Positions 4,392 through 18,496 of a DNA stretch of 64,000 nucleotides are shown piece by piece. The translations under genes and the position numbers were made by a program. Location: positions 64,001 through 128,000 of IMG/VR virus record IMGVR_UViG_3300012039_000002; one strand, given 5' to 3'. Numbering within the stretch: the first letter of the stretch is position 1; every line of letters begins with the position of its first letter. Under the pieces are notes generated by a model, which saw only the letters and a program-made list of their open reading frames with translations, ran no database searches and was not told the origin of the DNA. Origin of the DNA: a virus.

Positions 4392-4483
4392 GCTTGCAAT
4401 CACGGATAAATCGAGGAATTTCTCTTAATATAGTACCTGTCTACGTGTTTTATTTGTTACATTTTACCGAAAGAAGGTGGACG

Positions 4484-5437
4484 ATGTCGGAAGAACTCAA
4501 TGACCTATTTTCTTTTTATATCGAAAACATCGAATTTAAAGAAGAACAGCTCGACAAAGCTTTCATTGATCAATACAAGCGCATCGACTTAGATAAGTCG
4601 ACTGGTCGAATTGTTGCAGGTTACGCATCAACACCCGATTTAGATTCTGACGGAGAGACTATTGTTCAGAAGGGCTTAGACATATCATATTATCAGAAGT
4701 CTGGCTGGCTGAATTATATGCATAACAACAATCCGTCCCATGTAATCGGTATTCCTATTGAGTCTTATATTGATAGCAAGGGTTTCTACACAAAAGCGAT
4801 GCTGCTTAATAACGATATGGCGAATGATGTTTGGAAACTCGAACAACAGCTCAAGTCTTTAGGCTATCCCCGTCACTTAGGTTTCTCGATAGAAGGCAAA
4901 GTAGTTGGCCGATCTGCCGTAAATAAATCAAAAATCATCAAGGCTAAAGTCACGAATGTTGCTATTACGCACATTCCCGTGAATACATTTGCGACGTTTG
5001 AAACAGTCTCGAAGTCTTTTGTTCCTCCGACTTACGACGAAGTGGTCGGCTATATAATGAAAGACCTCCCGTTAAAGAAAGACTTGGCGGCATTGAGTGC
5101 CTCACCCGGTCTCAATGCTGGTAGTAGTTTTGGAAGCGACAACTATACTGGTGGCGAAGTTTTGAGAACAGAGTCACTAGAAGGCGCAAATGCAAACGCT
5201 TACAAAGGGAAAGCAGTCACAGGGAACGATAGAACGTCCGAACAAGAACTTGATGAACGTCTCAACTCAGCCTACCGTAGTGCTCACAAATCCCATTCAG
5301 AATTAATAACTTTACTAAAGGCTGTCCACCCTGCAGCCTCTGAAAACTTGTTAGAAGAGATCACTAATCTCGTCTATAAGGCAAAGGGTATCGACAATTT
5401 TATCAAAATAATTAGCGAATCAGAGGTATTAAAGTAA
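4484..5437 (+). CDS. Prohead (capsid maturation) protease
   Basis: GYASTPDLDSDGETIVQKGLD, LNYMHNN, GFSIEG and VAITHIPVN (HK97/herpes-fold serine protease). Start moved to ATG 4484, which follows GAAGGTGG. Confidence 0.92.
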   Translation: MSEELNDLFSFYIENIEFKEEQLDKAFIDQYKRIDLDKSTGRIVAGYASTPDLDSDGETIVQKGLDISYYQKSGWLNYMHNNNPSHVIGIPIESYIDSKGFYTKAMLLNNDMANDVWKLEQQLKSLGYPRHLGFSIEGKVVGRSAVNKSKIIKAKVTNVAITHIPVNTFATFETVSKSFVPPTYDEVVGYIMKDLPLKKDLAALSASPGLNAGSSFGSDNYTGGEVLRTESLEGANANAYKGKAVTGNDRTSEQELDERLNSAYRSAHKSHSELITLLKAVHPAASENLLEEITNLVYKAKGIDNFIKIISESEVLK

Positions 5438-5488
5438 AAACTCGTTGTTTTTTACTAATTTAATACTCGTTACACGGAGGAAAAGTGA

Positions 5489-6451
5489 ATGTCTCTTATT
5501 AAAGTGATGGAAGATCTTATCGCAAAAGCCCAGGGTTATGATACCAAGCACACGGGCTCTGGCGGTCCTGCTGAGGCGGTAGCACACTCAGTGCAGGGCG
5601 CTCCTTCGGGCGATGAAAGCAAGAAGGAAAAGAATGCGGCCAATTCTGGAACGCATATCAAGAGTGGCGGCACGCCTGGTTCAAGCAATCGACCTGAAGG
5701 CGGGGAAGATTTCAAGGACGGCGGAGCTGCTGAAGACGAAATTCAGACGCCTAAGGGTTCTGGTGGAAGGGCTCCTCAAGCTCGTCCCGGCACAATTAAG
5801 CACGAAGGTGGTCAGGGTGGTGCAACACTCTCTGCCAAGTCTGAAGGCGAAGCCGATCTCGAAAAGGGATTCCCTCCTGCTGAAAAGAAGGATGACGACA
5901 AGGGCTCCGACGAAAAGGGCGAATCAAAGGAAGATGAAAAGAAGGAACACGAAGGCGGAGATGACAAGGACGACAAGGATGAAAAGTCCGAGAAGTCAGT
6001 CGAGTCCGGTGAAGTTCTTCTTGATATCGATGAGTTCGCAACAGAAATTACAAAGTCAGTAACCGAAAAGGTTCTTGCTTTTATGGAAGAAAAGTTCGGC
6101 GAAACAGTTCAGAAATCAAAGGATTCAGAATACATCGAAGCAGGGTTGGCTAAGTCAATTGCCGCCACGCTTGATAGAGTTGAAGAACTCGAAAAGGCAG
6201 TTGTTAATGTAGCTAACGCTATGAATATTAGAAAGTCACTTCTCAAGTCATCTGACAACATCAAGGGAATTGACAACCCATCTCTTAACAAGACTTCTTT
6301 GACTAAGAGTGAGGTTTCTAGTAAGCTGCTCGACATGCAAATGTCCGGCCAGTTCGGTGTAGACACAAATATGGTTCTCAAATTTGACGGCACGGGCGAT
6401 TACTCAGTACTGCCCCCAGTAGTCAAAAGCAAACTTGGCATAGAAGAATAA
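5489..6451 (+). CDS. Scaffolding protein
   Basis: Acidic, low-complexity protein with a coiled coil and many KS/KA sites, lying between protease and capsid; GGAGG RBS. Confidence 0.75.
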   Translation: MSLIKVMEDLIAKAQGYDTKHTGSGGPAEAVAHSVQGAPSGDESKKEKNAANSGTHIKSGGTPGSSNRPEGGEDFKDGGAAEDEIQTPKGSGGRAPQARPGTIKHEGGQGGATLSAKSEGEADLEKGFPPAEKKDDDKGSDEKGESKEDEKKEHEGGDDKDDKDEKSEKSVESGEVLLDIDEFATEITKSVTEKVLAFMEEKFGETVQKSKDSEYIEAGLAKSIAATLDRVEELEKAVVNVANAMNIRKSLLKSSDNIKGIDNPSLNKTSLTKSEVSSKLLDMQMSGQFGVDTNMVLKFDGTGDYSVLPPVVKSKLGIEE

Positions 6452-6478
6452 TAGTTCACTCAGGAGGAACGCTAAACA

Positions 6479-7942
6479 ATGGATGAAGTACAGGGTTTTG
6501 GATTAGGATCCATGCAGGATGTCCAGGCCATTAACAAGGCCGTTGACTCGTTGTATAACGCGGGCACGGGAACCGGTTTGGCAGCTGGAGCTTCTTTTGG
6601 TTCCGACAATTATGGTAGCACTGGTGCGCAGTCCCTCAGAGTTGAATCTCTGGACTCGTCACTCAAGGTTATCACGTTCACTGATAAGCACATCAACTTC
6701 TGGAAAGACATTCCGAAGTCACCTGCTTATTCAACGGTTGAAGAATACAACCAGTTAACCTCTTACGGCTCGCAGACGGGCGGATTTGTTTCTGAAGGCG
6801 AATTGCCATATCAGACAAACTCCGACTACGCCAGACGAGCAGCTCTGGTCAAGTTCGTTGGAACGACCAGATCAGTAAGCCACCCATTAACCTTGGTCCG
6901 TACGATGGTTCCTGATGTTATTGCGCAGGAAAACTCAAATGGTATCATGTGGATGCTCCGCCAGATTGAAAATTCTCTCTTCTGGGGCAACGATGTGGGT
7001 CTTACGGGTGAATACGTGGAATGGGCGGGCCTTGATAAGCTTCTTGGCGTAGGTCCAAACACGACTTCCGGTACAGGCGCTGGTAACACCTTCGACCTCC
7101 GCGGAACAACTTTCTCCTCAACTCCTTTCACGACAATCGTCAATGACTTGGCACAGACAGTAGTTGATAACTTCGGTTTCCCAACTGACATTTATCTTCC
7201 ATTCCCTGTCCTTGCAAAGATCAACGAAGAGTTCGCTGGAACCGCTGCACAGAGAGTAATTCTCCCAACAGCCTCTGGTAATACTCAGGTCAACATTAAC
7301 ATTGACGGCCTTATGACTCAGGCTGGTCGAGTTAATCTCAAGCCAACCTTCTTCTTGCAGAAGACAAGAGTAGTTCCTGGTGCCGGTGACGGCGCTGCTA
7401 AGGTTCTTAAGTCTGGCGCTCTTGCGGTCGGAGGTACTTCTGTCACTATGTCAGCTGCAGGTACTCCTACAACTGGCTACTCAGTGGCTGCTGGTGACTA
7501 TGAAGGATCAGTCACTTTCAGAAACAAGTATGGTGAATCCGGCTCCGTCGCTCAGGGCGGTGGTACAATCACCACAAGCGGAACTAACACTCTTAGATTC
7601 GCTATCACAGCTCCTCCAACCGATGCAGAATTCGTAGACCTCTTCATCACTCAGGTCGACGACGCTGCTGGCGTGAAGTATTGGGTTCAGACAATGGCCC
7701 TTACTACAATAGCTGCAGGCCCAACTAACTACGATTACAATGGTATTCGTATGCCTAACACCTATACCTGCTTCATCGGCCAGATGACTCCTGACGTTCT
7801 TACCTTCCGTCAGTTGGCTCCGCTGGTAAAGATGGATCTAGCAACGATCGCTCCGGCTTACAAGTGGATGATCCTGCTCTACGGTGTTCCTGTTCTCTTC
7901 GCTCCTTTGAAGTGGACCAGAGTTATTAACGTAAAGTATTAA
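6479..7942 (+). CDS. Major capsid protein (SPO1/Twort-type)
   Basis: SLRVESLDSSLKVITF, FWKDIPKSPAYSTVEEYNQ, IENSLFWGN, FGFPTDIYLP and QLAPLVKMDLA; AGGAGG RBS; strong terminator follows. Confidence 0.93.
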   Translation: MDEVQGFGLGSMQDVQAINKAVDSLYNAGTGTGLAAGASFGSDNYGSTGAQSLRVESLDSSLKVITFTDKHINFWKDIPKSPAYSTVEEYNQLTSYGSQTGGFVSEGELPYQTNSDYARRAALVKFVGTTRSVSHPLTLVRTMVPDVIAQENSNGIMWMLRQIENSLFWGNDVGLTGEYVEWAGLDKLLGVGPNTTSGTGAGNTFDLRGTTFSSTPFTTIVNDLAQTVVDNFGFPTDIYLPFPVLAKINEEFAGTAAQRVILPTASGNTQVNINIDGLMTQAGRVNLKPTFFLQKTRVVPGAGDGAAKVLKSGALAVGGTSVTMSAAGTPTTGYSVAAGDYEGSVTFRNKYGESGSVAQGGGTITTSGTNTLRFAITAPPTDAEFVDLFITQVDDAAGVKYWVQTMALTTIAAGPTNYDYNGIRMPNTYTCFIGQMTPDVLTFRQLAPLVKMDLATIAPAYKWMILLYGVPVLFAPLKWTRVINVKY

Positions 7943-8000
7943 TCCTACTTTACATAACAAGAACTGACAGCATAGTTACAAACAGCAACTGAATCATTCG

Positions 8001-8038
8001 AGGGGTCTTAATGGCACTGCTGTTAAGACCCCTTTTTT
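8001..8038 (+). terminator. Rho-independent terminator after the capsid gene
   Basis: AGGGGTCTTAA...TTAAGACCCCT stem followed by a T-run. Confidence 0.88.
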
Positions 8039-8065
8039 CTAGACTCGTAAAAAGGAGTTTCATAA

Positions 8066-8299
8066 ATGACTCTATATCCACAACCAGGGGACACAGTCGG
8101 CGTAGGCTATGTTATGTCGTCCTTTGTTAGAGGACCCGTCGGCCTGCAAGGATATTCAGGAGACAATTCTGGCTATTCTGGCATGCAGACTTCGGGCACA
8201 TCAGGTTATGGCACCTCAGGTTACTCCGGATTTTCAGGTGCAACTGGTGCTTCTGGTTACTCTGGTGTTGACGGCTCTTCTGGCTACTCTGGCTTCTAA
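8066..8299 (+). CDS. Small SGYSG-repeat protein 1 (candidate head fibre/decoration protein)
   Basis: AAGGAG RBS; N-terminal YPQPGDTVG, then G-x-S triplets. Confidence 0.7.
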   Translation: MTLYPQPGDTVGVGYVMSSFVRGPVGLQGYSGDNSGYSGMQTSGTSGYGTSGYSGFSGATGASGYSGVDGSSGYSGF

Positions 8300-8327
8300 A
8301 CGTACGACTCAAATTTGGAGGATTTAA

Positions 8328-8564
8328 ATGGGACAATATCCAGCAGCGGGTGATTCGGTAGGGTACTCCTACACGTCCCCTCTTATAGGACCACGAGGCA
8401 CTTCGGGCTATAGTGGTACTCTTGGTACAAGCGGTTACTCTGGAGGCATAGGCACGTCCGGCTATTCTGGTTCTGGTAGATCTGGATATTCTGGCGTAAC
8501 TGGTGCAACCGGTACTTCCGGCTACTCCGGTACCGATGGTACTTCAGGTTACTCAGGCGTCTAA
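8328..8564 (+). CDS. Small SGYSG-repeat protein 2 (paralog of 8066)
   Basis: GGAGG RBS; N-terminal YPAAGDSVG, then GTSGYSG repeats. Confidence 0.7.
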   Translation: MGQYPAAGDSVGYSYTSPLIGPRGTSGYSGTLGTSGYSGGIGTSGYSGSGRSGYSGVTGATGTSGYSGTDGTSGYSGV

Positions 8565-8651: not shown

Positions 8652-9011
8652 ATGGGAAACTATTTTAGAGTCGGGAATACAGTTGTAACACTAGAAGAAA
8701 AGATGCGTCTCACACCGGCGGACGTTAAGCGATACGAAGCGGATGCTGTAATTGCGGAAGCAAAGCGCCTCGAGAATATTCGCAGATCGCAAGGAATTGC
8801 TGCTCCGAAAAGCGTTACTCTTGATGTGACTCCGGCTGCTGTCGCTGCTCGTAAGACAGCAATTGCAGCTGAAGAAGCTAAGCTTGTAGCTGAAACAAAA
8901 GAAGTCGAAGTTGAGCTAGGGGAACCGGGTGCTAGTTTCTTGGCGGAAGGCGAAGAGACTTCAGACGTGCAGTCAAGAAGGGGCAGAAAACCTAAACAAG
9001 CAACTGTATAA
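8652..9011 (+). CDS. Hypothetical protein
   Basis: AAGGAG RBS; Ala/Glu-rich with a basic C-terminal tail (RRGRKPK). Confidence 0.6.
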   Translation: MGNYFRVGNTVVTLEEKMRLTPADVKRYEADAVIAEAKRLENIRRSQGIAAPKSVTLDVTPAAVAARKTAIAAEEAKLVAETKEVEVELGEPGASFLAEGEETSDVQSRRGRKPKQATV

Positions 9012-9051
9012 TTCAATTAAATAAACATAATGACATAGTTAGGAGCTAGTG

Positions 9052-9438
9052 ATGGCTGATGTGACTGGGGCTCATACTACGTTTCATCCCGTAGTGTCTC
9101 AAAATACTGAATCGGTTCTAAGACATAGGGCTAGATTTCAAACTAGTTCAGGCAGCAAGATCAATTTGCCTCTCATTACTGGAACTAGATACATTATATA
9201 TTCAGCGTATACTGCTGGAAAGCAGCTTACAATTGGTATCTCTACTGACGGCACTAATTATGTCAGCGGCAAGACTTACTTCGATTTCTCTCAGGCAGCA
9301 GGCCCTGTTGACTTGACAAAATTCTTTTCTTCAACTCCCTTTACTCAATACACACCGCCAACAGCTACTGACGTTTATTTGCTCATCAAAACTGATGCTG
9401 GCGAATTCACTGTTTCTATCGTTGAGTACAAAGTGTAA
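9052..9438 (+). CDS. Hypothetical beta-rich protein (possibly virion)
   Basis: AGGAG RBS before ATG 9052; TAATG coupling to the next gene. Confidence 0.55.
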   Translation: MADVTGAHTTFHPVVSQNTESVLRHRARFQTSSGSKINLPLITGTRYIIYSAYTAGKQLTIGISTDGTNYVSGKTYFDFSQAAGPVDLTKFFSSTPFTQYTPPTATDVYLLIKTDAGEFTVSIVEYKV

Positions 9439-10025
9439 TGGCTACCAAGGAAGAACTAAAAGAGGCGGTTTCTGAATCCCTCTTAGAGGCTCTTAAAGTT
9501 GCAGAAGAAAAACAAAAAGAAAGCGACGTTGTAACAAATTCAGGCCTTAATTGGGTTCTTAATCTATTAAATAAATTGATGCCTATGGCTCTCTTAGCGC
9601 TTATGGGATGGATAGCACTCACGATAGTTGACAATCAGAAAGATTTATTGGCAATGCGTCTTCAAGTTAATGCGATGGATAATACAATGAAAACCTTCAT
9701 GGATAAAGACATGAGGAAGTCGGCTACAAGTGCGCTTCTTCATCACTCAACAACAGTCAATCCTTGCAGCGGCTGTCACACGCGAAATGGAGTAGTTGTT
9801 CACACACTAGCGTCTTTGCCAAACAAGTCTCTGATGCCCGGGGATCTGTTTGAAATTAAGTGCGGGTCCTGTCACACTCTTGATAGAGTTTTGGCGACAA
9901 AGGGAACGCATGAGAAGTGGAAATCTGTTGTTAATGAAATGAGACAGAAGAACGCTAAATGGATTTCGCCTAGAGAGGCAATAATAATAGTTGATTATAT
10001 TGATCAATTAGAGAAGCATAAATAA
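9438..10025 (+). CDS. Membrane-anchored c-type cytochrome-like protein with two CxxCH motifs
   Basis: TM helix (LMPMALLALMGWIALTIV), coiled coil, CSGCH (9765-9779) and CGSCH (9861-9875). The C-terminus LFEIKCGSCHTLDRVL...W...V.EM...WIS..EA..IVDYI has the small class I cytochrome c pattern. Confidence 0.8.
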   Translation: MATKEELKEAVSESLLEALKVAEEKQKESDVVTNSGLNWVLNLLNKLMPMALLALMGWIALTIVDNQKDLLAMRLQVNAMDNTMKTFMDKDMRKSATSALLHHSTTVNPCSGCHTRNGVVVHTLASLPNKSLMPGDLFEIKCGSCHTLDRVLATKGTHEKWKSVVNEMRQKNAKWISPREAIIIVDYIDQLEKHK

Positions 10026-10774
10026 TGAAGATACAGAACCTGACTCCAGATTGGCTATTAGAAACATATCTTTATAGAATTCCCATTGAGTTCGATAATG
10101 ATAGACTTTCTAATTCAGCTATTCAGTTTTATATCGACTCTGCAATTAGCAGAGCTGAAATGTTACTCGATATCTCGATTAGAAAAAAGAGCATCGAAGC
10201 TGAAACGTATGACTATCGTTTGGAAGAATGGATGGCTGGTTTTGGATTTGTTGCGCTTAATACGCGTCCTGCTATTCGTGTGACTAAAATGTCATTGAAT
10301 GTTATCACTAGTGAAATAGAGATTCCAGCGGAATGGATTCAACTTAAGAAGAAATCAGCACAAGTCAATTTGATTCCTTATTACGGTATGCTGGCTTCGC
10401 AGAATATTGCAAATCAAATATTGATATTTATGCCGATGTTGTCTGCTACTAGTTATGTGCCACAGATTTTGCGAATTTCATATGAAGCTGGCTATAACGA
10501 TACTGATGACGTTCCGGATCTATTAGCTCAGCTCATTGGTATGAACGCATCAATCGGAGTAATGAATGTTCTTGGTGAAATTGCTCTTGGAGGCCAAGCT
10601 GCTTTGGCTGGTTACTCTATTGGAATTGATGGATTATCTCAATCTGTCTCTACGACGCTGTCAGCAGAAAATCATGCTTACTCGGCTAGAGTTAGAGGTT
10701 ATGAAAGAGAACAAGTTGAAATAGTTAAGGCTTTACGCCAGTACTACTACGGTCTACACCTAACGAGCTGCTAA
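10025..10774 (+). CDS. Head-tail adaptor/neck protein
   Basis: FYIDSAISRAEMLLDISI...YEAGY...GYSIGIDGLSQS...YSARV, typical of SPO1-like neck proteins. Confidence 0.8.
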   Translation: MKIQNLTPDWLLETYLYRIPIEFDNDRLSNSAIQFYIDSAISRAEMLLDISIRKKSIEAETYDYRLEEWMAGFGFVALNTRPAIRVTKMSLNVITSEIEIPAEWIQLKKKSAQVNLIPYYGMLASQNIANQILIFMPMLSATSYVPQILRISYEAGYNDTDDVPDLLAQLIGMNASIGVMNVLGEIALGGQAALAGYSIGIDGLSQSVSTTLSAENHAYSARVRGYEREQVEIVKALRQYYYGLHLTSC

Positions 10775-15092: not shown

Positions 15093-15740
15093 ATGTTCCC
15101 GTTTAACGAATATAAGTTACTTAAGATCATAAGATCTGCCTTTGATGCTCTAAAAGAATCAGGCAGCTCTTTCGATAAGACTTTCCAGTATCTTTTCGAT
15201 GAGATGGATTTGAGTCTTGAGGAACGACAAGCCTTTAAAGACACGATAATCAACAATAAAATTGCATATCATACGACGTATGCTAATTTGCCGGTGAATA
15301 CGCCAATTATTACATGCGTTATGGATCAAGAAGTCAACATTGAAAGTGAAAAGCCTATTGGTTACGAAATGGGTGAAAACTCTGTAACTGATGCGGCGGG
15401 CAATGTGATCGCAACCGATGAATTGGGCTATATAGAGATGGGAGCCTATTCAGTAAACGTCATTGCTAAGCAGATATTACTTGTAAGGCTTTTGGGAGCT
15501 TTCGTAAAGTTTATTTTTGAGAAATACGCATCAGCCAACGACGATATAATTGACTTGGACGTCAACGTGGACAGGTTTTCTCCCGATGCTGACTATTTCC
15601 CAACTGATTCGTTCCACATACACATAACTCTTCGTTTTAGGTATGTTGAGACTTGGGATGAACTTACGTCTCCAATTGCCCAGATCTTCATGATGTCCTG
15701 TGGCACAGATTTCTGGCAAAATATCATGGGCGAAAATTGA
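15093..15740 (+). CDS. Probable tail completion/terminator protein
   Basis: Acidic 215-aa protein immediately before the sheath; positional call. Confidence 0.55.
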   Translation: MFPFNEYKLLKIIRSAFDALKESGSSFDKTFQYLFDEMDLSLEERQAFKDTIINNKIAYHTTYANLPVNTPIITCVMDQEVNIESEKPIGYEMGENSVTDAAGNVIATDELGYIEMGAYSVNVIAKQILLVRLLGAFVKFIFEKYASANDDIIDLDVNVDRFSPDADYFPTDSFHIHITLRFRYVETWDELTSPIAQIFMMSCGTDFWQNIMGEN

Positions 15741-15757
15741 AAAACGCCATAGATTTG

Positions 15758-15767
15758 TTAATTTATA
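15758..15767 (+). promoter_or_regulatory. Candidate late promoter motif TTAATTTATA
   Basis: Identical 10-mer at the start of three modules (15758, 34878, 58486). Confidence 0.5.
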
Positions 15768-15813
15768 AAAATGACATAGGTTTTTCTCTACTCTATGTGA
15801 TAGGAGAATGTTA

Positions 15814-17694
15814 ATGGGCGTATATTTCAATGGTAGATACTACATCAAGCCTCAGGTGGCAACTTACGTAGATGATAGTGCGTTGACACCGATTGGACTT
15901 GTAGGCTCTAATGTAATAGGAATGATGGGTCCGGCTAAAGACGGTATCCCAAATCAGGCTTATCTCTTAACGTCCCTTAATGACGCCACTGACATTTTCG
16001 GTGAAGGACCTCTTGTCGACGGTGTTGCTATGGCGTTCAATGGCGGTGCTCAGTATATTTGGGCAACTCGTGTTGGTGGAACATACGATGGTGCTACTCG
16101 TCTATTCACGGGCGCTCCTTCGCAAGCATTCTTTGAAACAGCCGATGGTACAGGTATCCCATTCAAGCTCCTTTCGAACGCTTACGGCACACAGGCTAAT
16201 GGAATTTCAGTTACAACACACGCAACGGGATCTTCTGCTTCTGTTCGTGGTGTCACAGTCTCGGTTTCTGCCCAGGGAAACACAATTATGGGTGAAGGAA
16301 TCTTCTACGACACTCTTAAGATTGCTGCCGGTGCTGGTTCTCCTGCATCTACCTCTTTTACGGTTGCTTCAGGCATCTTGACTATTACTGATGGCACAAA
16401 TACTGGGCCAACCATTGCTTTAGCTGGTGTCGCTTCTACAACTGATTTGGTCGAAAGAATCAAGGCTGACATGCAGTTGGCTACTCCTGGTGCGATCGAC
16501 GATACAAAGTTCACATTTACTGTTCTCAAGGAAGTTCCAGGGACGCAACTTGATGACGGCGCTGTAAGCGTTGCTACAGGAAACACAGATACGCTACGTG
16601 CAGACGTCAAGGCTGTGTTCGATTGGATTAACGCCGGAGTTCAGCCATATGTGTACGCCGAAGATTCTGATGACATCTTTACAAGTACAGCTGTAAAAGA
16701 TCTAGACCTTTTACGAACAGCGAATACTCCAGGTACGATATTCACATTCAACATGGCAGATGGAACTCTAGCTACTATAGGATCGATTGACTCAACAACC
16801 TATACTGGTGTCCTTGCTGAAATCTACGAAGATCTTGATATCGATCTAGTAGTGCCAATTGTTGATGATTATCTTGGAGTCACAAACTCTGATGATGCCG
16901 CTGCAATCTTTTCTGCTACTCTAAGTCATTGCAAGGCAATGAGCACAATCAAGTCCGAAGAAAGAATCGGCCTTGTGGGTTATCAGTTTGAAGCAGGAGT
17001 TTTGCCAGCCGGCACGACTTCTATCTCTGACGGCGATGCTGACCTTCTTGTTACTGACTTGAAGGCCAATGCCGCTACATTCAATTCTCCATACATGGTT
17101 GTTTGCACTCCAAGACTAAAGGCTTTCGATACAAAGGGAATTCTTAAGCTCTTCAACGGTACGTATACTGCGGCTTATGTTGCAGGTCTTATTGCTTCAT
17201 TCCCAGTGGGTGAGCCAATTACTAACAAGGACATCACGGGCATTCAGGGGCTTTCAACTTACTTCAAGAACAGACAAATTCTCCAATTGATTGACAACGG
17301 AGTTTGCACAATAGAACGTGTAGGCGCAGCGCTTAAGGTTGTACAAGGCGTGACGTCTTGGATCTCGGACGACAACTTCAACAAGAAAGAAATCTCTGTC
17401 CGATTGGTGACCAACTACATCGCCAAGAATTGCAGAGAAAATTTGAAGCAATTTATCGGTAGAAAGAACTCTCTACAGATGCTTCAGATCATTAAGGGAT
17501 CATTGGTGCAGGTTCTTAGAGAACTTGAAAACAATGAGATCATCGTTGGTACGCCAACTTATCCCGCTTATAGAAATCTTTCTTTGTCAGCTGATGGTGA
17601 CGTTGTTCGTGTGTCTTTTGAATGTTCGCCAGTGCTTCCAATTAACTACATACTAATCACAATCCATGCGACCGTCTTCAAAGCAACGATCTAA
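15814..17694 (+). CDS. Tail sheath protein
   Basis: MGVYFNGRYYIKP N-terminus; GEPITNK, LIDNGV, VVQGVT, KEISV, FIGRKN and PVLPINYILIT. Start at 15814 fits the TAGGAG spacing. Confidence 0.95.
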   Translation: MGVYFNGRYYIKPQVATYVDDSALTPIGLVGSNVIGMMGPAKDGIPNQAYLLTSLNDATDIFGEGPLVDGVAMAFNGGAQYIWATRVGGTYDGATRLFTGAPSQAFFETADGTGIPFKLLSNAYGTQANGISVTTHATGSSASVRGVTVSVSAQGNTIMGEGIFYDTLKIAAGAGSPASTSFTVASGILTITDGTNTGPTIALAGVASTTDLVERIKADMQLATPGAIDDTKFTFTVLKEVPGTQLDDGAVSVATGNTDTLRADVKAVFDWINAGVQPYVYAEDSDDIFTSTAVKDLDLLRTANTPGTIFTFNMADGTLATIGSIDSTTYTGVLAEIYEDLDIDLVVPIVDDYLGVTNSDDAAAIFSATLSHCKAMSTIKSEERIGLVGYQFEAGVLPAGTTSISDGDADLLVTDLKANAATFNSPYMVVCTPRLKAFDTKGILKLFNGTYTAAYVAGLIASFPVGEPITNKDITGIQGLSTYFKNRQILQLIDNGVCTIERVGAALKVVQGVTSWISDDNFNKKEISVRLVTNYIAKNCRENLKQFIGRKNSLQMLQIIKGSLVQVLRELENNEIIVGTPTYPAYRNLSLSADGDVVRVSFECSPVLPINYILITIHATVFKATI

Positions 17695-17710
17695 CTAAGG
17701 AGTTATCATA

Positions 17711-18148
17711 ATGGCTAAAGTTTATTCAGGCAATACTATCATGGTGGTTATCAAGAACAAGCCTGTTGGCTTGCTCCAAGATATGACCGCCGATGAAGAT
17801 TTTGCTCCGGAAGCTGCCTCTGGAATCGGTGATCCTAGAGTAGTTGAATGGGTGCCTACAATGTATAGAGTTTCTCTGACTGTGGCATCGATGTCACTAA
17901 AGAAAGATTCTCTATTCAATGTCGGTGTCTTCCCAGAAGGCATAGACAAGTATTTGGCAACCGAACCTTTCACGGTCGTTGTCATCGACAAGGTCTCTAA
18001 GCAAACAATTCGTCAATATAACAACTGTATCTTTTCACGAGGAACAGTCTCAGTTAGAAAGCATACGATCGTATCTCACAACTGCACACTGCTCGCAACT
18101 GAAGCTGTGGCTGGAGATGCAGCTGGATTCACTGAAACTGTAGCATAA
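17711..18148 (+). CDS. Tail tube protein
   Basis: VYSGNTIMVVIKNKPVG...GIGDPRVVEWVP; follows the sheath. Confidence 0.88.
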   Translation: MAKVYSGNTIMVVIKNKPVGLLQDMTADEDFAPEAASGIGDPRVVEWVPTMYRVSLTVASMSLKKDSLFNVGVFPEGIDKYLATEPFTVVVIDKVSKQTIRQYNNCIFSRGTVSVRKHTIVSHNCTLLATEAVAGDAAGFTETVA

Positions 18149-18166
18149 TAAATAAAGAGGTGTAAA

Positions 18167-18496
18167 ATGGCTCAGAAAATTTCGCAGTATTTTACGTACA
18201 AAATTGGTGAAAAAGAATACAAGATAAGATATAAAACGCCCAAAGTGGGAGAGCAGATAGCGATAGGTCAGGCATATGCAGCATTGAAGGCTGGATTCCC
18301 GACACTGGATGAAGTTGCTGATGTTTTGGCCTACGCTACTGCTACTCTTAGTGTTGTTATTATAGATCGCCCCGCCGACCTCATTTTCGAAGACATAGAT
18401 GCGTCTGACTGGAAAACTCTCCGTCAAATGCTGACTGATTATCAATCATTTGCCTTTTTTCGTGACAAGGCTCCAGCAGAATCTACTCCGTCGTGA
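18167..18496 (+). CDS. Tail assembly chaperone
   Basis: Lies between tube and tape measure; ends near FFR, encoded by the slippery run TTT TTT CGT. Confidence 0.8.
   Translation: MAQKISQYFTYKIGEKEYKIRYKTPKVGEQIAIGQAYAALKAGFPTLDEVADVLAYATATLSVVIIDRPADLIFEDIDASDWKTLRQMLTDYQSFAFFRDKAPAESTPS

Follow-up and report, generated by a model that had tools for sequence, protein, structure and literature searches.

c-type cytochromes are normally parts of cellular respiratory systems, and their haem is attached covalently outside the cytoplasmic membrane. In Bacillus subtilis CccA (cytochrome c-550) and in the NapC/NirT/NrfH proteins, an N-terminal transmembrane (TM) anchor is followed by one or more c-type haem domains outside the membrane. 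In the cytochromes c7 and c3 (PF14522, PF02085), a His a few positions upstream of CxxCH acts as the distal ligand. Among phage proteins, the class III holin T of T4 begins with a helix in the cytoplasm, crosses the membrane once and ends in a periplasmic domain; its gene is a late one outside a classical lysis cassette. Another T4 protein, gp40, aids the portal at the membrane. Haem can be held by a very short segment, as in the magnetochrome of MamP, which comprises 23 residues (PMC6472588). MamT of magnetotactic bacteria, a protein of 174 aa, has an N-terminal TM helix and a pair of CXXCH motifs that face away from the cytoplasm (PMC3905215).

Here we describe a gene on a 64,000-nucleotide stretch (the window) of the IMG/VR record IMGVR_UViG_3300012039_000002, which stems from an uncultured freshwater-sediment phage with a genome of 163 kb. 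The ORF begins with ATG and encodes a bitopic protein of 195 aa with two CxxCH motifs (Table 1). Between this gene and that of L001, dN is 0.17, with dS saturated and hence no dN/dS value. Judged by sequence comparison, the ORF is a real gene under purifying selection, and its GC and GC3 are in line with those of the neighbouring genes. The encoded protein is predicted, very probably correctly, to bind haem outside the cytoplasm. The best explanation overall, which we consider reasonably probable, is that of a late inner-membrane coiled-coil oligomer of N-in/C-out orientation, predicted to carry covalent haem outside the cytoplasm.

Table 1. Position of the 195-aa protein gene, its predicted parts and its neighbours (coordinates of the window).
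Feature	Position	Strand	Basis or remark
Overlap (TAATG, stop/start) with the upstream 129-aa gene (9049-9438)	9436..9440	+	
Whole gene	9438..10025	+	195 aa; 100% identical protein on 12 contigs
N-terminal acidic amphipathic helix, probably cytoplasmic (residues 1-36)	9438..9545	+	alignment A6, AF2
AVSESLLEAL (residues 10-19)	9465-9494	+	
TM helix core, signal anchor (residues 47-64)	9576..9629	+	Kyte-Doolittle
Invariant Q67-K68, then five-heptad coiled-coil stalk (residues 67-101)	9636..9740	+	a/d pattern, periodicity
HH-x6-CSGCH, invariant family motif, candidate minimal bis-His haem c site (residues 102-114)	9741..9779	+	alignment
HH (residues 102-103)	9741-9746	+	
CSGCH (residues 110-114)	9765-9779	+	
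Class I mono-haem cytochrome c domain, predicted (residues 133-195)	9834..10022	+	BLASTP, HMM, AF2, structure match
CGSCH (residues 142-146)	9861-9875	+	
Candidate axial Met168 in NEMRQK	9939-9941	+	
Overlap (TAATG, stop/start) with the downstream adaptor gene	10023..10027	+	
Head-to-tail adaptor (neck) protein gene, SPO1 gp6.3-like, phrog_772	10025..10774	+	profile matches

The initial annotation had placed the gene inside a head-neck operon and had noted TAATG coupling to both neighbours. Both points were confirmed: the overlaps are present at either end, and the downstream gene encodes a protein with matches to adaptor/neck proteins of known structure (PDB 8q01_b, 'Adaptor protein / Neck protein', E 9.7e-12) as well as to phrog_772 (E 4.8e-40). 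The family gene is located directly 5' of the adaptor gene in every locus that reaches the adaptor, i.e. in 10 of 11 loci; in the remaining one, L015, the contig ends within the gene. Given this position throughout the 11 loci, whose gene contexts were read from pattern scans, the gene is a core late gene of the head-neck operon in this SPO1-like lineage. Between subfamilies, the family protein shares 31-39% identity as opposed to 67-85% for its neighbours and thus diverges faster. The operon also includes, 1 kb upstream, genes for SGYSG mini-proteins, which are present in all longer loci. The operon was matched at 100% by RNA-library contigs from three sediment studies, one of which corresponds to positions 8788-9460 and stops 23 nt inside the 195-aa gene. 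Cover of this gene in the RNA libraries was low and a contig spanning it was absent among the pieces listed, which is uninformative either way; by themselves, these contigs cannot establish its transcription.

As judged from sequence and predicted structure, residues 133-195 are a complete class I cytochrome c domain of the SorB/cytochrome cz/QHNDH type. Such a domain, with CGSCH and a candidate distal Met, had already been suggested in the initial annotation, and profile and structure searches recovered both the cytochrome c homology and the class I fold. BLASTP aligned the domain with the exported 92-aa protein P0125 (44% identity, E 3e-17), and a profile search yielded 1276 HMM matches. In an alignment of 36 domain homologues (A9), C142, C145 and H146 are invariant, and M168 (M44 of A9), which is located in the third helix and is predicted to act as ligand, is conserved in at least 90% of the sequences. 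A conserved Trp corresponds to W161. AF2 modelled the domain with four helices (pLDDT 86.9), and more than 40 of the best 50 matches in the structure search were c-type cytochromes. The whole 195-aa protein remained below every Pfam and NCBIfam cut-off (NCBIfam SorB, E 1.7e-4 and 21.6 bits against a cut-off of 93; PF13442, 13.5 bits versus 27; PF09098, 14.1 versus 25.2), and the homology therefore rests on the BLASTP match to P0125 and the profile search.

Structural comparison related the domain to SorB, the cytochrome subunit of the Starkeya novella sulfite dehydrogenase (2BLF chain B; VIA Z 7.6, rmsd 2.8 over 62; Foldseek probability 0.98), to the C-terminal domain of Chlorobaculum cytochrome cz (3A9F; 3a9f_B; Z 6.8, rmsd 4.1 over 65; Foldseek probability 0.92) and to the haem domains in the alpha subunit of quinohemoprotein amine dehydrogenase (QHNDH; 1JJU; PF09098; scored on the related 1PBY; Z 4.6, rmsd 2.8 over 64; Foldseek probability 0.80). 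All three share with residues 133-195 the signature LFExKCxxCH...W...V..M...WI...EA..I..YL. The cellular relatives of the domain match these families above the Pfam cut-offs, unlike the phage domain, which scores 13.5-14.5 bits and thus below all curated cut-offs. In addition, the phage domain is fused to a TM/coiled-coil module, whereas the SorB, cytochrome cz and QHNDH domains are soluble subunits or tandem repeats.

The nearest relatives of the domain are small lipoprotein cytochromes from metagenome-assembled genomes (MAGs) of Deltaproteobacteria, Deferrimicrobiaceae and Nitrospirota, with about 50% identity (44-52% over the whole domain for the 105-aa ORF L017:1860-2177, P0122 and P0125). 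These proteins are likewise membrane-tethered and periplasmic. However, they are held by a lipid anchor or set free once the signal peptide is cleaved, carry one haem, and possess neither a stalk nor a cytoplasmic part. The adaptor protein was not found in the five MAGs with the nearest cytochrome relatives or in 401 genomes of that phylum, which is uninformative with regard to the host. Within the phage family, the C-terminal domain was found only in the clade of the window (7 sequences), while most members are short and have one CxxCH. The designation as a di-haem protein is accordingly clade-specific; the second CxxCH and its domain occur in this clade only, and the rest of the family has one CxxCH.

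On sequence grounds, residues 1-115 define an undescribed phage-specific family of about 29 metagenomic clusters, for which Pfam, PHROG and NCBIfam contain no model. PHROGs held no family for the 195-aa protein, its short relatives or the upstream neighbours, and tblastn of the protein against 50,697 phage records gave no match. Pattern scans with two patterns confirmed no such N-terminal module in 185,579 species genomes, the ESM Atlas returned long-helix look-alikes only, and a whole-genome check revealed neither a shared N-terminal tag nor a paralogue. Full-text searching of the literature yielded no account of a comparable phage protein. PADLOC matches to DpdD (18.9 bits, weak) and, through the coiled coil, to LmuB were judged to be spurious.

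The family combines an N-terminal AVxESL helix, one TM helix, a QK pair, a heptad stalk, the HH-x6-8-CxxCH motif and the position before the adaptor gene. In 29 aligned sequences spanning 27-86% identity, A10, V11, E13, S14 and L15 are conserved at 90% or more within the nearly invariant AVSESLLEAL segment, and Q67, K68, H102, H103, C110, C113 and H114 are invariant. Conservation of the CxxCH motif in homologues, on which the initial proposal had been made to depend, is thus given, and the single TM helix, the coiled coil and the HH pair preceding CSGCH were likewise recovered. All 29 homologues possess the hydrophobic helix, with a mean Kyte-Doolittle value of 1.9-2.5 over 19 aa (1.9 in the 195-aa protein). 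Hydrophobic a/d positions occur at 70, 73, 77, 80, 84 and 87, period-7 power is strongest, and the distance from QK to HH is 28, 35 or 42 residues in different homologues, i.e. insertions and deletions comprise whole heptads. The stalk profile also matched a designed coiled coil (Alphabody). A search of PDB sequences with residues 95-135 produced additive weak matches to the designed repeat protein 'Pizza', in which the Cys residues are unaligned, and this match was dismissed as an artefact. AF2 placed a helix at residues 4-28 with low confidence; a full-length AF2 model from 7 sequences reached a pLDDT of 52 and was left out of the fold search. The short forms of the family, such as the 124-aa protein of L004, have basic C-terminal tails and an extra HxxxH, one His of which occupies a core d position of the coil. 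The protein of L006 carries an extension of 65 aa, presumably a further periplasmic domain.

As an analogy in the way of working, the 195-aa protein would share with MamT its small size, bitopic nature, two CXXCH motifs and haem c on a very short segment (PMC3905215, PMC6472588). Magnetochrome proteins (MamP, MamT, MamE and MamX), with their short haem domain of the CPxCH type, differ in having neither a coiled coil nor the HH pair and are restricted to magnetosome gene clusters. No sequence similarity to them was detected: neither MamP nor another Mam protein occurred among PDB sequence matches of the 195-aa protein, the family profile or residues 95-135. Cytochromes c7 and c3 are soluble, hold three to four haems and lack a TM helix and a coiled coil, and all matches to them were below cut-off. 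CccA and NapC/NirT/NrfH have no long cytoplasmic N-terminus or coiled coil and gave no significant match; the 195-aa protein has two CxxCH motifs as opposed to the four of NapC/NirT/NrfH and did not match NrfH or NapC.

Charges on either side of the TM helix are too weakly biased to decide the topology. We infer the C-out orientation because the fused cytochrome domain needs covalent haem attachment outside the cytoplasmic membrane. In the phage's ORFs of at least 100 aa, 0.22 CxxCH motifs are expected from composition and 4 are observed, in three proteins that all carry an N-terminal hydrophobic segment; these motifs are not due to chance. The two additional proteins are exported or anchored, which fits the earlier suggestion of a host that matures c-type cytochromes. 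One is an exported GEGP-like protein, the other a TM-CxxCH protein of 112 aa. In the explanation that we favour, the gene product would be a late-expressed inner-membrane protein, N-in/C-out, whose coiled coil assembles as a parallel oligomer. From the N-terminus onwards, its core would comprise the conserved helix on the cytoplasmic side, the TM anchor, a stalk of fixed length quantised in heptads and a minimal HH-x6-8-CxxCH haem c site, which is probably bis-His to judge by cytochromes c3 and c7 and by the magnetochrome of 23 residues. In the clade of the window, a class I His/Met cytochrome c domain resembling the small lipoprotein cytochromes of anaerobic sediment bacteria would have been fused onto the tip of the stalk, which would place a series of two haems at a distance of about 5 nm from the membrane. 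The haem would be attached by the cytochrome c maturation system of the host. The protein, whose gene is translationally coupled to that of the adaptor, may act late on the envelope as a redox or electron-transfer module, with its cytoplasmic helix touching a conserved partner from phage or host. It is presumably not a part of the virion, and no PHROG match links it to a known virion protein family.

Haem may instead be confined to the C-terminal domain, with HH-x6-8-CxxCH serving as a Zn, Cu or Fe site or as a redox-active Cys pair. In that case, the 195-aa protein would carry a single haem, and the short members of the family would fall outside the cytochromes. This would agree with the N-terminal module, which has no homology to any cytochrome above threshold: the Pfam matches are sub-threshold (cytochrome matches in 7 family members; Cytochrome_C7 at residues 103-151, E 0.032, below cut-off). 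His2Cys2-type ligand sets are, moreover, classic metal sites, and the HxxxH of the short forms, with its His at the core d position, would be in line with such a role. However, a strict CxxCH with His right after the second Cys occurs in 29/29 sequences, the motif and a genuine cytochrome c domain share one side of the membrane, and a His upstream of CxxCH is the pattern of c3/c7 and magnetochrome (PMC3905215, PMC6472588). We regard this alternative as unlikely, albeit with an appreciable chance of being correct.

Less probable is a holin-like or lysis-timing protein of the T4 T type, as suggested in the initial annotation, in which a periplasmic haem would sense the redox or energy state and gate permeabilisation of the membrane. 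The predicted overall layout is that of class III holins such as T4 T, with the orientation of the 195-aa protein being deduced from the fused cytochrome domain only. Late expression coupled to structural genes, the fast divergence between subfamilies and the basic tails of the short forms are also consistent with this role, and so is the TM-CxxCH protein of 112 aa, which is encoded directly after an SLT hydrolase in a candidate lysis cassette centred on SLT (G000, about 19.7-22 kb) and separate from the 195-aa gene. The 112-aa protein is unrelated: homology between its family and that of residues 1-115 was rejected (hhalign probability 10%, only CxxCH aligns), and its match to NrfH was not significant (E 0.03). 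Together with a 78-aa protein with three TM helices, it provides other holin candidates near the SLT gene. A hydrolase gene is never adjacent to the 195-aa gene in the 11 loci. No holin family was found at E ≤10 in Pfam or ≤0.01 in PHROGs, T4 T (Pfam Phage_holin_T) shows no sequence or profile similarity and lacks a haem motif and a coiled-coil stalk, and a single TM helix on a rigid coiled coil is no sign of hole formation.

Lower still in probability, we would place a trans-membrane redox checkpoint, in which haem on the tip of the stalk, connected through the inner membrane with the conserved cytoplasmic helix, would make the completion of virions or the moment of lysis depend on the redox or energy state of the host periplasm. 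In this version, a deep SPO1-like lineage of sediment phages would maintain a new kind of minimal haem c protein, to which one clade would have added a cytochrome c domain taken from a host. Next, and rather doubtful, is an auxiliary electron-transfer gene, whose anchored cytochrome would join a periplasmic chain of the host and sustain or redirect respiration during virion production. The similarity of about 50% identity to small periplasmic lipoprotein cytochromes, the exported GEGP-like CxxCH protein and the freshwater-sediment habitat would be compatible with this function. However, the class I domain is missing from most family members, and the cytoplasmic helix, the most conserved part beyond the haem motif, would be needless for an electron shuttle. 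In addition, the fixed place and translational coupling in the head-neck operon are unlike those of typical auxiliary metabolic genes.

A membrane tether or checkpoint for head-neck assembly, with the cytoplasmic helix binding portal or adaptor and the periplasmic part being accessory, appears more doubtful yet. It would account for the adaptor gene always following directly, with stop and start codons overlapping, and for an N-terminal helix that is nearly invariant while the remainder varies. On the other hand, homology to assembly factors is absent, a TM protein is lacking at the corresponding position of cultured SPO1-like phages (SPO1L5 has a 117-aa acidic protein there), and the invariant haem motif is left unexplained. 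A haem peroxidase-like catalyst cross-linking the Tyr-rich SGYSG fibres, as also suggested initially, is highly improbable in spite of the co-occurring SGYSG genes, as virions assemble in the cytoplasm while c-type haem domains mature outside, class I domains with six-coordinate His/Met haem carry electrons and are not peroxidases, and no peroxidase family was among the Pfam or NCBIfam matches.

The haem-attachment motif is thus invariant in a phage-only family whose gene is fixed in a head-neck operon, in contrast to metabolic genes that are only loosely attached. Should haem binding hold true, the known cytochrome architectures would gain a haem c module of very small size supported by a coiled coil, which would be of interest for protein design, and a phage would have captured a host cytochrome domain and fused it to a protein of its own. 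Why tailed phages of anaerobic sediments need late periplasmic redox chemistry would then become a question. The host would be narrowed to a bacterium that matures cytochromes c. With two more haem-motif proteins in the genome, one of them adjoining a candidate endolysin, this phage is suited to testing a link between haem and lysis.

The gene directly upstream of the adaptor gene (phrog_772) probably encodes a membrane-anchored c-type cytochrome that bears a new N-terminal module (residues 1-115). Its open reading frame is as the initial annotation described it, with 195 aa, an ATG start and a TAATG stop/start overlap at each end, and GC and GC3 are in line with those of the adjoining genes. 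Over all 230 ORFs of at least 100 aa in the genome, 0.22 CxxCH motifs are expected from amino-acid composition; four were found within three proteins, all of which have an N-terminal hydrophobic segment. Conservation of the motifs was checked in seven close homologues (53-86% identity), and both CxxCH, HH102-103 and M168 were retained. Compared with the 75%-identical copy in the related metagenomic locus L001, dN was 0.17 with a saturated dS, which points to strong purifying selection on the 195-aa gene.

The 1276 matches of a profile search over 1.84 billion representatives fall into two classes, one aligning to residues ~130-193 and the other to residues 2-116. In the first class, the phage residues align to 2 to 15 tandem stretches of cellular proteins that bear signal peptides or lipoboxes. 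These proteins score above the Pfam thresholds of Cytochrome_CBB3 and Dehyd-heme_bind, and several also above that of P840 cytochrome c-551. Identity of the phage domain is 44% with an exported protein of 92 aa (E 3e-17), and 46-52% with small lipoprotein cytochromes from MAGs of "Deltaproteobacteria", Deferrimicrobiaceae and Thermodesulfovibrionales/Nitrospirota. All 36 aligned domains keep the C, C and H of CxxCH as well as W161, and conservation of M168 reaches at least 90%. The AF2 model of residues 125-195 was confident (pLDDT 86.9). Its top structural match was SorB (2blf_B; Z 7.6, rmsd 2.8 over 62 residues), with cytochrome cz (3a9f) and QHNDH (1jju/1pby) among the further best matches, and class I cytochromes c filled more than 40 of the best 50 rows. 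SorB was likewise the top-ranked NCBIfam family for the phage protein (E 1.7e-4). Since the phage domain alone lies under every curated family cut-off, it was assigned by pairwise and profile homology together with the fold.

The second class comprises short proteins of 109-187 aa that align to residues 2-116 and terminate just past their sole CxxCH. After a second search, this family held ~29 clusters, all metagenomic and matching no family in Pfam, PHROG or NCBIfam; a pattern scan of cellular genomes found no members. At 27-86% identity, Q67, K68, H102, H103, C110, C113 and H114 are invariant and conservation is at least 90% at A10, V11, E13, S14 and L15; a single strongly hydrophobic 19-mer is present in each member. 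The spacing from QK to HH is 35 residues in most members, 28 in one and 42 in four, the latter carrying a duplicated heptad. The a/d positions of the stalk are hydrophobic, period-7 power is the highest, and a designed coiled coil was among the family-profile matches. From the 19-mer, the whole-heptad spacings, the a/d pattern and the invariant residues, the predicted layout runs from an N-terminal helix through a TM anchor to a parallel coiled-coil stalk, quantised in length and tipped by HH-x6-8-CxxCH. The short forms have an extra HxxxH, one His of which occupies a core d position of the coil; the window's clade has aromatic residues in its place and gained the class I domain. The label "di-haem" is therefore clade-specific: it would apply to the window's clade, with two CxxCH, and not to the short forms, with one. 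Another extension of 40-65 aa after the CxxCH, ending in EPDGDE..KKK and free of a cytochrome domain, occurs in a member in L006 and in proteins P0064 and P0103. Given these differing extensions, the stalk tip seems to act as a platform to which varying C-terminal parts are added.

The hydrophobic segment begins 36-47 residues from the N-terminus, and therefore serves as a signal anchor, not as a signal that is cleaved off; the charge bias around it is too weak for orientation. Haem is attached covalently at the outer side of the cytoplasmic membrane. As the haem ligands of the fused domain are under selection, the C-terminus and the HH...CxxCH tip should be periplasmic. In cytochromes c3 and c7, His ligands typically lie upstream of CxxCH. 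The first motif (HH...CxxCH) is also a putative haem site, because its CxxCH is strictly kept, its upstream His are of this type and magnetochrome provides a precedent; the match to PF14522 is weak. In magnetochrome, 23 residues can suffice to hold a haem c (PMC6472588). Like the phage protein, MamT is small, has a TM segment and carries two CXXCH motifs (PMC3905215). That the first motif is a metal site instead of a haem site is unlikely.

The gene was located in the window and in ten related loci (L001, L004, L005, L006, L009-L012, L014, L015). In every locus reaching that far it lies immediately 5' of the adaptor gene, with stop and start usually overlapping or abutting. This adjacency is kept in L014, where an insertion parts the gene from the 129-aa gene, and in L011, despite a capsid fragment only 49% identical. 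Across clades, neighbour proteins are 67-85% identical, whereas the cytochrome-family protein is 31-39% identical; taken with the constant adjacency, this pattern indicates a gene that belongs to the core of the lineage yet diverges fast. At the corresponding position, cultured SPO1-like phages lack a TM protein. The phrog_772 product resembles solved "adaptor / neck protein" chains (8q01_b, E 9.7e-12) and also matches SPO1 gp6.3, so that the operon was rightly called a head-neck operon.

Features of the phage genome (G000) and of related loci; plain numbers are window positions, and L007 and L008 are pieces of G000
Feature	Coordinates	Remarks
Prohead protease	4394-5437	first of the genes 5' of the cytochrome gene, in order
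Scaffold-like
Major head protein	6479-7942
Two SGYSG mini-proteins
119-aa protein
129-aa protein
Cytochrome gene	9438-10025 (+)
phrog_772		first of the genes 3' of the cytochrome gene, in order
phrog_1004 virion protein
Two Lys/Glu-rich proteins
215-aa protein
Tail sheath
Tail tube
Candidate lysis region	G000:C1:19711-21811 = L008:62-2162	among tRNA genes; outside window
78-aa protein		lysis region; 3 TM
186-aa SLT-domain protein		lysis region; PF01464, E 1.4e-16; N-terminal hydrophobic (signal or SAR-like) helix
112-aa TM protein		lysis region; overlaps SLT gene stop codon; invariant H-x10-CNDCH
Exported 128-aa protein	within G000:C1:140927-142258 = L007:1428-2759	signal peptide, CLICH, DSDGD; outside window
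309-aa lipoprotein	within L007:1428-2759	follows the 128-aa gene
Insertion between 129-aa and cytochrome-family genes	L014:1340-2493	~1.1 kb; adaptor overlap kept
Family member with other extension	L006:5977-6549

The 112-aa protein belongs to a family of 33 clusters, all metagenomic, and its C-terminal 50 residues, which include the CNDCH motif, are extremely conserved; kinship with the cytochrome-family gene was considered and rejected, the two not being homologous. The third CxxCH protein of the phage, of 128 aa, resembles the NCBIfam 'GEGP motif-containing diheme protein' domain (E 4e-18, below cut-off). The 309-aa lipoprotein had no match in family searches.

Among the roles proposed initially, a redox-sensing, holin-like lysis regulator would agree with the T-like layout and late expression, but no holin family was matched, the gene never adjoins a hydrolase, and the genome has a candidate lysis region elsewhere, at 19.7-22 kb. 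Electron shuttling is hard to reconcile with a cytoplasmic helix that is nearly invariant and with the many members that are without the class I domain. Cross-linking of Tyr-rich fibres by haem is unlikely on topological grounds. Our working model would be an envelope-directed redox module whose cytoplasmic helix touches a conserved partner, although we consider it quite improbable that such a module, with its helix on that partner, forms a checkpoint.

The virus record comprises 163,355 bp (the window being bases 64001-128000) with direct terminal repeats, 43.6% G+C and 33 tRNA genes, and the major head protein is ~40% identical to its counterparts in SPO1-like Herelleviridae. The stretch is present in freshwater-sediment and sediment metagenome sequencing runs, and three metatranscriptome libraries, each from a different study, have contigs that match the operon at 100%. 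Long RNA-library pieces cover the scaffold-capsid-SGYSG genes (window 5484-8522) and the sheath-tube genes (window 15700-18200); cover elsewhere is much patchier, while that of a DNA run is even. One RNA-library contig spans 8788-9460 and stops 23 nt inside the cytochrome gene. These contigs fit a phage active in the sampled sediments and are no proof that the cytochrome gene is transcribed. The prohead protease, at its C-terminus, and the major head protein, at its N-terminus, have in common a stretch of ~27-29 residues (55-59% identity by BLASTP), also found in L004, L005 and L006, which may be a scaffold- or protease-docking or propeptide segment.
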